Source of the DNA: a virus
Length of the DNA stretch: 37,393 nucleotides
UHGV virus genome: UHGV-0149281
Reading direction: 5' to 3' (one strand)
Shown here piece by piece: positions 5,689 through 34,450 of this stretch. The translations under genes and the position numbers were made by a program. How positions within the stretch are numbered: position 1 is the stretch's first letter; each line of letters begins with the position of its first letter. The notes beneath the pieces are model-generated. The model was not told where the DNA came from. It saw nothing but the letters and a program-made list of their open reading frames with translations, and ran no database searches.

Positions 5689-6057
5689 TTAGTCAGCGAA
5701 GGTTAAGACGAGAATTACCTTAATGATGTCTGCTACAACAGACACGGCCATAGATAAACCAAAGACGATCCAAGCCACAGTGATGTCTTCACTACCATCG
5801 TATAGAGTTCCGTAATCACTGGTGTAAGGCGTAAATGTCGCGCCTTGATACAATAGGTATAAGCTTGATCCATAGAGGATAAATGCAGATATCCCTTGTA
5901 TTGCTATGACCACTAGAATCATGAAACGAGCTGATCTATGCGCCCAAGCCTGGCTTATTTTTTCTGATAGAGATTTCGCAATAAAAGCATGCGCTAAGCC
6001 GTAAATTGTCGAGATTGCCAACATCCCAAAAAAGCTTGCTATAGCGGTTCCAACCAT
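5689..6057 (-). CDS. small polytopic membrane protein downstream of cI (rex-like position)
   Basis: ORF with several hydrophobic helices; ATG at 6057 (alternative TTG at 6078 overlapping the cI stop); same strand as cI. Confidence 0.65.
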   Translation of the reverse strand: MVGTAIASFFGMLAISTIYGLAHAFIAKSLSEKISQAWAHRSARFMILVVIAIQGISAFILYGSSLYLLYQGATFTPYTSDYGTLYDGSEDITVAWIVFGLSMAVSVVADIIKVILVLTFAD

Positions 6058-6074
6058 AATCGCCCCTTGCGTGA

Positions 6075-6791
6075 TCAAACCAGCCTTAGTTTTGTCTCAA
6101 TTGCAACGCCTATAATCTTGCAGTTTCCATTGATTGGCACGAGAGGCCATGCAGGATTAAGTCCCTTGAGGTATTTATTTCCGCCGTCGATTATCAGCTT
6201 CTTGAATGTTGCTTCGTTAGAGTCAGAAAGTTTTGCTATGACCAAGCTGCCGTTGATCGCCTCCCTTCCGGTATCGAAAAGAACGAATGTTCCCTCTGGA
6301 ATGCTTAACCCAACCGGTGCCGTCATTGAATCACCTTCCACTTTAAGCCAGAACGCATTACCTTGAATATGCGCGTCAGACTCAAGCCAAACATCTATGT
6401 CTTTAATGGTGTATGGTTCGCATGCTTCACACCACGAGCCAGCCTGGATACTGCTTAACACCGGATACCTCTTTCCTGCTCTGTATTCCCCTGCATACCT
6501 TACGTTGGCATCGCTCTTAAGGCTTTCTGCCTGTTCTGCAACCTTGGCAGCAATTGACTGGCTAAAATCAGCAATTGAGACTTGCAACAAACGTGCAAAA
6601 CCAGATGCGACCTCAACGTTTAGCGCGTTTCTGCCATTAAGATAATGCCCTACCGCTCCTTGGGTGATACCCAGTTCATCAGCGATTGAGTATTGGGTTA
6701 TTCCCAATTCTTTCTTTTTTGACTCATACAAAGCCTTAAGCCGCTTAGCGTCTTCGAGCTGTTCTGTCGTCAGTGATTTTTTATTTTCCAT
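6075..6791 (-). CDS. cI: CI-type prophage repressor (HTH + LexA/S24 peptidase-like domain)
   Basis: 238 aa; N-terminal HTH (QYSIADELGITQGAVGHYLNG); C-terminal domain has the S24 Ser/Lys-type motifs (GDSM...K); divergent from cro. Confidence 0.9.
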   Translation of the reverse strand: MENKKSLTTEQLEDAKRLKALYESKKKELGITQYSIADELGITQGAVGHYLNGRNALNVEVASGFARLLQVSIADFSQSIAAKVAEQAESLKSDANVRYAGEYRAGKRYPVLSSIQAGSWCEACEPYTIKDIDVWLESDAHIQGNAFWLKVEGDSMTAPVGLSIPEGTFVLFDTGREAINGSLVIAKLSDSNEATFKKLIIDGGNKYLKGLNPAWPLVPINGNCKIIGVAIETKLRLV

Positions 6792-6866: not shown

Positions 6867-6897
6867 CTTTGTTCATGGTTAATAACGGAGAGTGCAT

Positions 6898-7092
6898 ATG
6901 ATTCGAATGACACTTGCCGATTACGCCAAAATCCATGGACAGGCTAAAGCAGCCAGTGACTTTGGTGTAATCCAGTGCGCTATCAGTAAGGCCATTCTGG
7001 CAGGCCGTAACATTATGGTTACGGTAAAGCCTGATGGCAGTGTGATTGGAGAGGAAGTTCGTCCTTTCCCAAGCAACAAGAAAAACAAATAG
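6898..7092 (+). CDS. cro: Cro repressor
   Basis: [34 protein letters not shown]....[16 protein letters not shown] parallels lambda Cro; GGAG RBS. Confidence 0.9.
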
Positions 7093-7098
7093 TAACAC

Positions 7099-7143
7099 CG
7101 CTCTTTAACAGTCATGGTCCTCATTCCCGCCGAAATGCGGGAA
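7099..7143 (+). promoter_or_regulatory. nutR (boxA + boxB)
   Basis: boxA CGCTCTTTAACA followed by the boxB hairpin TTCCCGC-CGAAAT-GCGGGAA. Confidence 0.8.
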
Positions 7144-7200
7144 TACAACGCGCATAAGTTGATGCGCATAACTTCTTATTAGTTAAGGAAATACTTACAT

Positions 7201-7479
7201 ATGCAACTTACAAGTACTCGCAAGAAAGCGAATGCAATTACAAGCAACATCCTGAATCGAATTGCTGTACGTGGTCAGCGAAAGGTTGCCGACGCGTTAG
7301 GGATTAATGAATCGCAAATTTCGCGATGGAAAGACAGCTTTATCCCAAAGATGGCCATGCTTCTGGCTGTTCTTGAATGGGGAGTTGTTGATGATGAGAT
7401 GGCGAGACTTGCTCAGCAGGTGGCATCGATTCTCACAAAAGAAAAACGCCCAGCTGTTGGTAGCAGTCTGGACGCTTAA
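7201..7479 (+). CDS. cII: cII transcriptional activator
   Basis: ...SQISRWK..FIPKMAMLLAVLEWGVVDDEMARLAQQVASILT matches lambda CII closely. Confidence 0.9.
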   Translation: MQLTSTRKKANAITSNILNRIAVRGQRKVADALGINESQISRWKDSFIPKMAMLLAVLEWGVVDDEMARLAQQVASILTKEKRPAVGSSLDA

Positions 7480-7513
7480 GCACACTGTGTTACGCCAAGT
7501 AACAGGAGTAATT

Positions 7514-7918
7514 ATGCCAGGACAAACCAAGCAAGTAAACACCGGCATAAAGGCCGGTGACAAGTTCGAAACCGTATATCCATTTATCTTCGTATGCACA
7601 GATTATCAGTCTTATGACGGCAACGTGCATACCGATGAGCGCTGGATTGGCGGTTGTCACAAAAATTATGAGCCAGCCGATTGTGGTTATGGTGATCAGT
7701 GTTTTTACACCGCTGATGCTGAAGGAAAGAGAATTCTTGAGGTTCTGGCAGTGGTGGAAATGCCAGGCAACTGGCAGCGCAGAATCATTTATTCGTGCCA
7801 CCTCATAGAGCCTGAAGGCAAGGAGAGGAAAGGAAGGAAGGCTTACACAGTCACCGAATCAAGGTTTTTAAAAATGTCTACTGGTTACTTCGCTGATTAC
7901 GAAGTAGAGGAGGCTTAA
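7514..7918 (+). CDS. hypothetical Cys-containing protein (134 aa) inserted between cII and O
   Basis: ATG 7514 with AGGAG RBS; in frame with a longer ORF overlapping cII that was rejected; no recognisable motif. Confidence 0.6.
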
Positions 7919-8064
7919 TGACAAAACCACTCAGTCCTTACCAGGACAAAATTCACAAACACATACTACGTGATCGCTTCCTGTCCAGCTTCAAGCAGCC
8001 TGGTCGATTCCGGGCTGAGTTGGAAAAAGTGAAGCTGATGCAGAAGGAGAAAGGTCATGAGTAA
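7918..8064 (+). CDS. small basic hypothetical protein (48 aa)
   Basis: ATG overlaps the upstream stop (TAATG) with GGAGG RBS; its stop overlaps the O start. Confidence 0.4.
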
Positions 8065-8917
8065 TCTTGCAACCGTAACACATTTAAGGCCTTCACAACG
8101 GCCTGTGGAGCGTCGTGTGGCAGAAGTTGAAGATGGTTATACCCGTCTTGCAAATGCCCTGTATGAAGAGCTTATCGGCGCAGATTTAACGAAAAATCAG
8201 AGCAAGGTTGCCCACGCCATATGCCGTAAAACATACGGCTACGGTAAAAAGATGGATCGCATCTCTGATAGTCAGTTAGCTCAAATTACCAGGCTGCCAA
8301 GACAGAAGGTAAACAAGGCCAAGAATGAGCTTATCGCGATGAAGGTTATCCTTCGCGAAGGCCAGCAAATCGGTCCTAACAAGAACATCGAAGAATGGCA
8401 AATCGAAGGGTGTCACTACTCTGGTGATAATGTCACTGCATTGGTGACAAAAAGTGTCACCAAAACGGTGACAGCGCTGTCACCAAAACAGGGACACACA
8501 AAAGAAACTATTACAAAAGAAAAAAGAAATAATAAAAACACTATGTCCGAAAGTGTTCGGACGGAGTGTGAAAAATCACATGACCGTCACGAAGAAACCG
8601 ACAAGGCATTCGAGGAAATATTCTGGTGTGCAGGCATGCGGAAATCCGGGAAGAAAAACGCGGCTTCGGCATTCAGAACACAGTTCAGGGAATGGCGTAA
8701 AACTACAAGGGGTACGGCAAGCGAGTTTGCCACGATGCTGGCAGAAGACATCGCATGCAGGAATGGTAAGCAGTTCGGATTCGACAGGTTGTTACCATCG
8801 AGCTACCTGAACGGTCAACGCTGGAACGACGAGAAGCCAGAAACTATTCAACCACAATCCAAACCATCATCCGCAATCACCGTATCGAAAACTGGCTACG
8901 TGTTTTTCGACAGGTGA
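8057..8917 (+). CDS. O: replication initiator, lambda O-type
   Basis: N-terminal domain ([46 protein letters not shown]) parallels lambda O; iterons lie inside the gene. Confidence 0.85.
8410..8545. repeat. replication origin: four iterons plus AT-rich region inside O
   Basis: Four GTCAC-N6-GGTGA-type repeats at about 20-24 bp spacing (8411-8495), then an A-rich stretch (8496-8545), mirroring lambda ori architecture. Confidence 0.75.
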
Positions 8918-8920
8918 ACC

Positions 8921-9028
8921 ATGAAATCAAAAATCAAATCGCTACTGGTCGCTGGTTATAACCACGGCTGGTTAAGTATTTCGTTTGTCGATTTCTGGTT
9001 TAAAAATCTCAATCTGAGGGAATCATGA
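8921..9028 (+). CDS. small hypothetical ORF (35 aa)
   Basis: Stop overlaps the primase-helicase start (ATGA). Confidence 0.25.
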   Translation: MKSKIKSLLVAGYNHGWLSISFVDFWFKNLNLRES

Positions 9029-10905
9029 GGCCAAGTGAACTCAGCGACCTGCTTTGGGCGCAGGTTGACAGGGTGGCTCCGCACCTGTTGCCAAACGGCA
9101 AGAAAGAGGGGCATGAGTGGGTTGCCGGTAACGTCAACGGTGACAAGGGAAACAGCCTTAAGGTCAATCTTAGCGGCAAGAAAAAATGGGCTGATTTCGC
9201 TGAGGGAGACGGCGGTGACATGCTTGATTTGTGGATGGCATGTCGTGGAATTAACCTGCATCAGGCTATGCAGGAAGCGAAAGCATTTCTCGGTATCAAG
9301 GATGACGATCACCATTTCGATGCCAAACGTGAGAAGAAATTCTCCAGACCTGATCGCAAGAAAATAGCCCGCTACGTTACCAGAACAGAATCCCATCTTG
9401 AGTACCTGCAATCGCGTGGCATATCGCCAGAAGTCGTAAAGCGCTACGAGGTTGTCAGCGGCAAGGTGTGGAATGGAGAACGAGAACTTGATGCACTGGT
9501 GCTTCCGTACAAACGCGATGGTGAGTTGTTGCAGGTCAAGCGAATCAGCACTGAGCGCCCGGACGGGAAGAAAGTCATTATGGCAGAAGGTGATTGTGAA
9601 CCTTGTCTGTTCGGATGGCAGGCTCTGGACGCTGGCGTGAGGGCGGTTGTGCTTTGCGAAGGCGAAATTGATTGTATGAGCTATGCGCAATACGGCATCT
9701 CGGCGTTATCCGTGCCGTTTGGTGGAGGAAAAGGCGCTAAGCAACAGTGGATTGAGTTTGAGTATCACAACCTCGACAGGTTTGAGGAAATATTCATCTC
9801 GATGGACGTTGATGATGTTGGTCGTGAAGCCGCAAGGGAAATCGCAAGCCGACTCGGTGAACATCGTTGCCGTCTTGTTACTCTGCCGTACAAAGACATC
9901 AACGAATGCCTGATGAACGGTGTTACCGAGGATGAAATCTGGCAGTACATCGGCACGGCATCCTACTTCGACCCTGAAGAACTCTACAGCGCGCGAGAGT
10001 TTTACCAGGACACTATCAACGCTTTCTACGGCAAGCAGCAGTATCTGTTTAATCCACCGTGGGAATCTCTGGCATATAAATTCCAGTTCCGTGAGGCAGA
10101 GTTGACGCTGGTCAATGGTGTGAACGGTCACGGAAAAACGGAGGTTGTCGGGCATATGGCACTTGAGGCAATGCGTCAGGGTGTGAAGACGTGCATCGCG
10201 TCACTTGAGCTGAAGCCTGGTATTCTCCTTAAGCGCCTTACCCGTCAGGCGACGTGCTGCAAGATTCCGCCAGTGCTGGAAATTGACTCTGCATTTAAAT
10301 TTTATGACGAAAGACTTTGGGTGTTTGGCCTGACCGGAACGGCGAAAGCCGACAGGCTGATCGAAATATTCGACTACGCTCGCCGCCGATACGGGATCCA
10401 GTTATTCATCATCGACAGCCTGATGAAATGTGGCATAGGCGACGATGACTATAACGGGCAGAAGGCGTTTGTTGACTCGATTTGCGACTTCAAAAACAAA
10501 ACAAACTCCCACGTCATTCTCGTTACTCACTCGCGAAAAGGAGACAGCGAAGAAAAACCAACCGGGAAAATGGACGTAAAAGGCTCTGGAGCGATAACAG
10601 ACCTGACAGACAACCTTTTCATCATCTGGCGTAACAAGGCTCGCGAGAGAGCGTTACAGAGAGTTCAGAGTGGTGAAAAGATGTCAGAGAAGGACGAACA
10701 GCTACTGGCATCTCCGGCATCTGTTTTGATGCTTGAAAAACAACGTAACGGCGAAGGTTGGGAAGGTGGCGTCCCTTTGTTCCTTGACGAGCAATCGCAC
10801 CAGTTCCTGCAACTTGAATCAGGATCGCCTTATAGCTACATCGCCAATATGCCGAAATCGGAATATGACGAGGCGTGGCGACAGGAAAACGTGACGGAGT
10901 ATTAA
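9025..10905 (+). CDS. bifunctional primase-helicase (Toprim + DnaB-like ATPase, T7 gp4-like)
   Basis: Toprim signature VVLCEGEIDCMSY...ISMDVDDVGREAA...LPYKDINECLMNG aligns with T7 gp4; Walker A GVNGHGKT and helicase motifs in the C-terminal half. Confidence 0.85.
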   Translation: MRPSELSDLLWAQVDRVAPHLLPNGKKEGHEWVAGNVNGDKGNSLKVNLSGKKKWADFAEGDGGDMLDLWMACRGINLHQAMQEAKAFLGIKDDDHHFDAKREKKFSRPDRKKIARYVTRTESHLEYLQSRGISPEVVKRYEVVSGKVWNGERELDALVLPYKRDGELLQVKRISTERPDGKKVIMAEGDCEPCLFGWQALDAGVRAVVLCEGEIDCMSYAQYGISALSVPFGGGKGAKQQWIEFEYHNLDRFEEIFISMDVDDVGREAAREIASRLGEHRCRLVTLPYKDINECLMNGVTEDEIWQYIGTASYFDPEELYSAREFYQDTINAFYGKQQYLFNPPWESLAYKFQFREAELTLVNGVNGHGKTEVVGHMALEAMRQGVKTCIASLELKPGILLKRLTRQATCCKIPPVLEIDSAFKFYDERLWVFGLTGTAKADRLIEIFDYARRRYGIQLFIIDSLMKCGIGDDDYNGQKAFVDSICDFKNKTNSHVILVTHSRKGDSEEKPTGKMDVKGSGAITDLTDNLFIIWRNKARERALQRVQSGEKMSEKDEQLLASPASVLMLEKQRNGEGWEGGVPLFLDEQSHQFLQLESGSPYSYIANMPKSEYDEAWRQENVTEY

Positions 10906-34379: not shown

Positions 34380-34450
34380 AGTTGAAGCCCCAACTGCGGG
34401 AACAGTCAGGGCTTCGGTATCAACAAATCGGATTAGGAAATATTGACATG
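34380..34450 (-). ncRNA. sar: candidate sar antisense RNA (against the ant RBS)
   Basis: P22 makes a short antisense RNA across the arc-ant junction; the junction is conserved here; boundaries not determined. Confidence 0.35.

Follow-up and report, generated by a model that had tools for sequence, protein, structure and literature searches.

A rare accessory gene, ORF134, and the ordinary orf48 gene share the cII-O junction of a P22-like lambdoid prophage

Two genes, ORF134 (134 aa) and ORF48 (48 aa), lie between cII and the replication initiator gene O in the DNA analysed here (37,393 nucleotides in all, hereafter the window), which is a P22-like lambdoid prophage of Escherichia coli. ORF134 is a rare, conserved accessory gene and the only truly extra gene at the junction. 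In the explanation that we consider the best overall (probability roughly 45%), both are early genes of the pR operon, and the product of the rare accessory gene ORF134 would be an early, non-enzymatic binder, with counter-defence or host modulation as its likeliest task. The anatomy of the junction and the classification of the two genes (ORF48 as a standard DUF2740 gene, ORF134 as a rare accessory gene) are close to certain. The junction and its surroundings comprise the following features:

6075-6791, leftward: cI
6892-7092: cro
7201-7479, plus strand: cII, the lysogeny activator, 92 aa (Pfam Phage_CII, E 4.4e-43)
7441-7503, minus strand: putative oop-like (HK639 "M3-like") antisense RNA of ~62 nt (from its fold and the HK639 and P22-pbi annotations)
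7511-7539, minus strand: predicted pO-like promoter (promoter scan)
7514-7918, plus strand: ORF134, 134 aa (PHROG 30464)
7918-8064, plus strand: ORF48, 48 aa, basic (Pfam DUF2740, PF10872, E 9e-29)
8057-8917, plus strand: O-type replication initiator, 286 aa (Pfam Phage_rep_O, E 1.1e-37)
9025-10905: Toprim primase/DnaB-like helicase fusion, 626 aa (PHROG 239)

NinB, the Q antiterminator, lysis genes and P22-type morphogenesis genes follow 3' of the helicase fusion, and a sar RNA (Rfam, 71.6 bits; 34380-34446, minus strand) marks the P22-type immI/ant region, which confirms the P22-like nature of the prophage. The gene after O is the primase/helicase fusion and not a lambda P-type or DnaC-type loader; the gap of 107 nt between the two holds a short ORF (8921-9028). 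At 5689-6078 on the minus strand, the start of a hydrophobic ORF of ~122-129 aa (PHROG 6534, no Pfam match) overlaps the end of cI by 4 nt. Transcription of this ORF together with the repressor in the lysogen is probable, which makes it a candidate prophage-expressed membrane accessory gene.

The preliminary description, made from the letters alone, had reported two ORFs of 134 and 48 aa between cII and O, a good ribosome-binding site for each with coupling to the start of O, a Cys-containing longer protein and a basic shorter one, and all of this agrees with our reading of the window. The two ORFs are present exactly at 7514-7918 and 7918-8064. ORF134 runs from an ATG at 7514 to a TAA at 7916-7918, with AGGAG upstream at 7504-7508, and its product has five Cys residues and a pI of 5.2. 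The ATG of ORF48 (7918-7920) overlaps this stop codon (TAATG), is preceded by GAGGAGG and opens a frame that ends with a TAA at 8062-8064 (product pI 10.1); the last 8 nt of ORF48 are shared with O, whose ATG is at 8057, so that start/stop overlaps link the genes down to O.

ORF48 matches PF10872 with 99.4 bits (cut-off 27, E 9e-29) over all 43 profile positions (1-43), and it is the same gene as P22 orf48, HK022 gp53 and HK620 hkaW: its identity is 98% to HK620 HkaW and HK022 gp53 and 83% to P22 Orf48, each likewise of 48 aa. It stands immediately upstream of an O-type (PF04492) gene whose start it overlaps. The same orf48-initiator layout is present in P22-pbi, HK620 and an Erwinia phage, and a tblastn search found the family in 127 phage records, always immediately 5' of O or gene 18. 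The dN/dS of ORF48 is ~0.29 against P22 and an Erwinia phage. ORF48 is the standard gene before O-type initiators and is translationally coupled to O. It is usual at the cII-O junction in more than 700 E. coli genomes, and lambda is the exception in having no orf48-type gene there (PMC3349717). The two-gene insertion of the preliminary description therefore exists in comparison with lambda, but against the real relatives of this prophage only ORF134 is extra and ORF48 is the usual resident. Similarly, its remark that neither protein has a recognisable domain is right for ORF134 (no Pfam match at E <= 0.1, no NCBIfam match at E <= 1) but not for ORF48, which is a DUF2740 protein.

A literature search found no paper mentioning DUF2740, and ORF48 matched no PADLOC-DB defence family at E <= 1. 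PHROG 1913 labels DUF2740 "tail protein", a label that has spread into many RefSeq phage annotations (e.g., hkaW in NC_002730) and that is almost certainly wrong, because the gene invariably occupies an early-operon position before O. The "orf48" of Silas et al. follows those authors' own numbering (gnarl1), and we set it aside as unrelated to P22 orf48. In several loci small ORFs of 48-54 aa lie between an ORF134 homologue and the initiator (4405-4551 in L028, ~4393-4557 in L076, L077 and L081), the one in L028 resembling a divergent DUF2740 by eye (...HKNIERD...), which suggests that a small basic protein before the initiator is a recurrent feature.

For ORF134, homologues were taken from 79 loci, which gave 57 distinct gene sequences (the window copy and 56 homologues). 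None of the 57 contains an internal stop, and dN/dS is 0.045-0.11 wherever dS is unsaturated (Nei-Gojobori, with the window copy as reference); on this pattern of substitutions ORF134 is shown to be protein-coding under strong purifying selection. The coding status of both ORFs, on which the preliminary description had staked its claim beforehand, is thereby upheld, frames being intact and constrained at the codon level, and the region is not a regulatory RNA, since its sole RNA element (the oop-like one) lies upstream of ORF134 and only the promoter falls within the first codons. It is scarcely credible that the ORFs are non-functional, either as chance frames or because the region serves mainly as regulatory RNA. 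Other long overlapping ORFs do occur on both strands (7490-7801, minus; 7557-7808, plus) and a putative antisense RNA is nearby, but against this stand the dN/dS of ~0.05, the 56 distinct intact homologues, a structure model with a pLDDT of 94 and 188 family representatives for ORF134, the Pfam family of ORF48, and the confinement of the RNA element to 7441-7503, outside ORF134. We regard a non-coding or spurious reading as excluded.

ORF134 belongs to PHROG 30464 over its full length (E 2.7e-95; residues 1-134 on profile positions 1-134), a profile that also matched 71 of 72 diverse members of the family. Its closest named relative is gp53 of phage HK639 (HK639_53, YP_004934083.1; 91% amino acid identity), and further relatives were found in the Hafnia phage Meifeng and in Klebsiella phages, with more remote ones (27% identity) in Leptolyngbya and Plectonema cyanophages. 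A word-indexed search returned 26 clusters only, all from Enterobacterales; an HMM search of 1.84 billion representatives (clusters at 50% identity) returned 188 proteins at E <= 1e-3, nearly all of them stand-alone proteins of 115-150 aa. The sole multi-domain member seen was P0072, a metagenomic protein of 280 aa that joins an N-terminal DUF3850/ASCH domain (PUA-like, of RNA-binding type) to an ORF134-like domain; as a single case, possibly a gene-calling fusion, it was dropped as a clue to function. No Pfam family is shared across the 72 family members, ORF134 matched no PADLOC-DB defence family at E <= 1, and general profile and structure searches found no likeness to a known anti-defence protein. 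The supplements to the Silas et al. screen contain no peptide motifs of ORF134 or ORF48, and literature searches with HK639, the accession numbers and the PHROG identifier found nothing on the function of ORF134.

The comparison of presence and absence among relatives, which the preliminary description had proposed as a check, was made in 5,426 complete E. coli genomes. The junction was matched in 718 of these, where ORF48 is usual, and ORF134 occurs in 2 of the 718 (CFSAN061770 and MS 115-1); the top-ranked of the other 716 read cII, DUF2740, O. ORF134 DNA was found in the same 2 of the 5,426 genomes and nowhere else in them, even at blastn sensitivity, in none of 72,556 plasmids and in 4 of 185,579 species-representative genomes. 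The MS 115-1 copy lies at 3244468-3245567 of NZ_CP146665.1. This strain is the source of a well-studied type III CBASS system, and the co-occurrence with ORF134 may be coincidental.

The borders of the extra DNA can be placed closely. In a megablast comparison, identity to HK620 spans 7201-7451 and 7918-8064 of the window, which delimits an extra block at 7452-7917 (466 bp). The alignment diverges from 7447 on, and the last ~28 nt of cII (from 7452) are within the block. At the left border HK620 and PSJ-07 have a different sequence in the last ~nine codons of cII and in the 34-nt spacer, and from 7483 on the sequence is that of the leader of the HK639 homologue; at the right border the block ends in ...GAGGAGGCTTAATG, in place of the ...GGAGTCATTATG that precedes orf48 in relatives. 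The exchange therefore took place where genes adjoin, within short conserved sequences for ribosome binding and translation start. ORF134 was acquired by mosaic exchange via the conserved gene-boundary sequences "GGAGTAATTATG" and "TAATG", in a block that also carries a separate variant of the putative oop-like antisense RNA.

The block carries the regulatory elements of the junction as well as the gene. A promoter scan predicted a pO-like motif on the minus strand (7539-7511: TTTACT, a spacer of 17 nt, TG-n-CATAAT), the -10 element of which overlaps the start codon of ORF134 and the -35 element of which lies within codons 7-9. The putative RNA would run from ~7503 to 7441 (~62 nt) and fold, at -21.4 kcal/mol, into a 5' hairpin and a GC-rich terminator hairpin followed by UUUUU; one of its ends lies within the 3' end of cII and the other just before the Shine-Dalgarno site of ORF134. 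Rfam has no model that matched it (window and 7100-8200 searched). The HK639 annotation has an "M3-like RNA" in the corresponding position, with its end 11 nt before the ATG, and that of P22-pbi gives a lambda-pO-like leftward promoter over the start of orf48 and a leftward terminator at the end of c1. The predicted architecture is that of lambda oop: a leftward sigma-70 promoter over the start of the first gene after cII, and a short, terminated RNA in the 3' end of cII.

The motif is kept in 35 of the 36 distinct loci in which an ORF134 homologue follows a cII-like gene, and a hairpin with a T-run ends the putative RNA in 31 of the 36, with many different stem sequences; these terminator stems vary among relatives with compensating changes. 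In the Klebsiella-type loci, the motif is absent from all 22 distinct examples and the proteins have no N-terminal extension. Furthermore, mean nucleotide identity is 86% over the 37 nt that extend from the Shine-Dalgarno site through codon 9, against 71% in the remainder of the gene, with identity at third codon positions there as low as 33-52%. Although the protein is least ordered in the stretch specified by the first nine codons, identity is higher there, which fits a constraint from the promoter at the level of the DNA. To judge from these patterns, a putative pO promoter is dual-coded in the first nine codons of ORF134.

Such an arrangement might suggest that ORF134 itself modulates the decision between lysis and lysogeny, via the stability or activity of cII or via the oop/pO circuit. 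The gene comes straight after cII on the same transcript, pO falls within its opening codons and its ribosome-binding site borders on the oop-like RNA, so that convergent transcription from pO could also tune its expression. The layout of cII, oop and pO is the same with any next gene, however, be it O in lambda or orf48 in P22 and HK620 (PMC3349717), and this constancy makes the promoter overlap a matter of position and not specific to ORF134. Klebsiella and distant homologues, moreover, have neither cII nor pO as a neighbour, and we consider a role in this decision decidedly unlikely.

The contexts of the homologues are of two main kinds. In the first (36 distinct loci), the homologue is the first gene after a cII-like gene, of which there are at least five unrelated types, and overlaps by 1-4 nt either the start of the initiator gene or that of a small orf48-like gene. 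The initiators fall into at least six unrelated clusters, HK639-type and PF04492 O-type among them. In the second, found in Klebsiella prophages, cI and cro are followed by O, a DnaC-like gene, small ORFs, the ORF134 homologue and an Ead/Ea22-like gene, with DUF1367 and RusA later; this is the nin-type accessory region after the replication genes. In the Klebsiella loci L040-L071 the 3' end of the homologue overlaps the start of the Ead/Ea22-like gene by 26 nt, and these highly variable proteins all begin with MEWRTAMT(D/N)ITEL, i.e., a constant N-terminus is followed by diverse bodies. Distant homologues (25-35% identity), from a Rhizobium prophage, cyanophages and soil or other metagenomic phage contigs of ~40 kb, lie in blocks of small early genes; their neighbours include ERF/YqaJ recombinases, MT-A70 or N6/N4 methyltransferases, DnaB and integrase, and in one metagenomic phage the homologue lies three genes before DnaB. 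The methyltransferases are not specific evidence for a function, since they are common in the early regions of phages. No partner gene is conserved across the 79 close loci and six distant contexts, and the early or accessory regions of temperate phages are the only places where homologues were found.

The main rival to counter-defence or host modulation is a dedicated role in replication, with ORF134 as an accessory factor that is held by coupling in a fixed ratio to the initiator and that aids or regulates origin firing, helicase recruitment or the timing of the initiator. In 36 of 58 distinct contexts the gene lies directly upstream of the initiator or of orf48-O with overlaps of 1-4 nt, which fits a replication-linked role equally well, and the proximity to replication genes in the Klebsiella prophages and to DnaB in the metagenomic phage points the same way. 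Yet the downstream partners belong to at least six unrelated initiator families, which makes a specific protein-protein partnership unlikely; the Klebsiella copies come after O and the DnaC-like gene, among nin-type accessory genes; distant homologues have recombination, methylase or integrase genes as neighbours and no initiator close by; and 716 of the 718 E. coli genomes with the same cII/orf48/O junction lack ORF134. Weakened by the diversity of the initiators, the Klebsiella context and these 716 prophages, the replication role appears unlikely to us.

The predicted structure bears on what kind of protein ORF134 may be. AlphaFold2 gave a pLDDT of 84 with 20 sequences and, with 72, a pLDDT of 94 and a pTM of 0.79. 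Both models agree in secondary structure and show seven or eight beta strands, of which some are long and bent, and one short C-terminal helix. ORF134 is thus predicted with high confidence to be a compact, mostly beta, single-domain protein. When this predicted model was compared with PDB and BFVD, the fold had no relative among solved structures, and BFVD yielded one unnamed ORF134 homologue; a profile search of PDB sequences returned only noise (E ~0.4-1, including ribosomal protein S17). Small beta folds of the SH3/Tudor-like and hot-dog-like kinds (PA1645, 2xu8; MaoC dehydratases; CarD; Tudor) likewise have long, curved antiparallel strands, and ~55-80 residues of ORF134 superpose on folds of one or the other kind; one cyanophage homologue has been deposited as "SH3 protein".

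Among the 72 diverse members, the conserved positions are G15, Y22, P23, F24, W44, G47, A67, G71, P84, R90, P100, G102, T114, F118 and Y129, i.e., almost all Gly, Pro or aromatic, with R90 alone both polar and near-invariant. Such a signature is structural: no set of catalytic residues or metal ligands is conserved among the 72. C48 is Cys in 45 of the 72 and otherwise Val or Thr, and the other four Cys are lineage-specific; a Cys-rich metal-binding or zinc-finger protein was accordingly rejected as a candidate, there being no conserved set of Cys/His ligands. ORF134 is not an obvious DNA mimic either, as it is only mildly acidic (pI 5.2).

Regulatory, replication-accessory and anti-defence roles had been suggested in the preliminary description, each of them a candidate only. 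Counter-defence or host modulation is, in our view, the most likely role of ORF134, at somewhat less than an even chance. Its patchy distribution combined with high conservation, its independence from neighbouring core genes, its presumably early expression and the lack of a catalytic signature make this role the most probable one. ORF134 would be transcribed from pR, and its translation would follow soon after infection or induction. The protein would act stoichiometrically by binding a component of the host or of a competitor and not as an enzyme, and would be dispensable for replication and lysogeny.

The same patchy, accessory-type distribution could be expected of a gene for defence or superinfection exclusion by which the prophage protects its lysogen, and lambdoid prophages often bear exclusion genes near the immunity region. 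ORF134, however, comes after cro and cII in the pR operon, which is repressed, with no rightward promoter of its own in the scan and no PADLOC match, and it is small, soluble and without enzymatic motifs; protection of the lysogen therefore seems very unlikely.

ORF134 is, in sum, an ordinary early accessory gene of phages, and what is mildly notable about it is the lack of a solved structural relative and the dual-coded putative promoter. A bolder reading, which we put forward as doubtful, would make it the first member to be characterised of a widespread unnamed family (at least 188 clusters at 50% identity) with an unseen small beta fold, an early inhibitor of a bacterial immune system or other host factor that travels as a self-contained cassette across proteobacterial and cyanobacterial temperate phages and that in the lambdoids has been adapted to carry pO in its disordered N-terminal codons. 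If ORF134 does serve in counter-defence or host modulation, a Pfam-less family of temperate phages in several phyla would gain a function, and a probable new fold would be added to the phage inhibitors. For the junction itself, a long-known, ordinary gene (orf48/DUF2740) can now be told apart from a truly rare cassette, and the layout of cII, oop and pO is kept whichever gene follows cII, i.e., lambdoid modules are swapped without breaking the regulation. DUF2740, for its part, is present in hundreds of prophages, always coupled to O, and it carries a "tail protein" label that is almost certainly wrong.

Compared with known systems, ORF134 resembles the accessory genes of lambdoid phages (the "morons", the nin-region ORFs, ren, ral and the genes of the Silas et al. 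screen), which are likewise small, patchy, located at module boundaries and part of early operons; like them it moves independently of its neighbours and yet is strongly conserved, and it differs in that its sequence matches none of the named accessory or anti-defence genes. The nearest counterpart, HK639 gp53 (annotated as "hypothetical protein"), likewise has a cII-like gene before it and the initiator after it, and the leader, the pO promoter and the 5' half of the antisense RNA are common to both loci, but the flanking cII-like gene (181 aa) and initiator of HK639 are unrelated to those of the window and orf48 is missing there. ORF48 sits, as do P22 orf48 and HK620 hkaW, directly before an O-type initiator whose start it overlaps, and its sole difference from the P22, HK022 and HK620 counterparts is that it is not the first gene after cII here. 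The regulatory elements conform to the order of cII, oop, an "orf", O and P described for lambdoid phages (PMC3349717): as in lambda, an antisense RNA of ~60 nt with two hairpins and an intrinsic terminator would lie in the 3' end of cII (PMC3349717), whereas the first gene after cII is ORF134 in place of O or orf48 and the RNA is another sequence variant.
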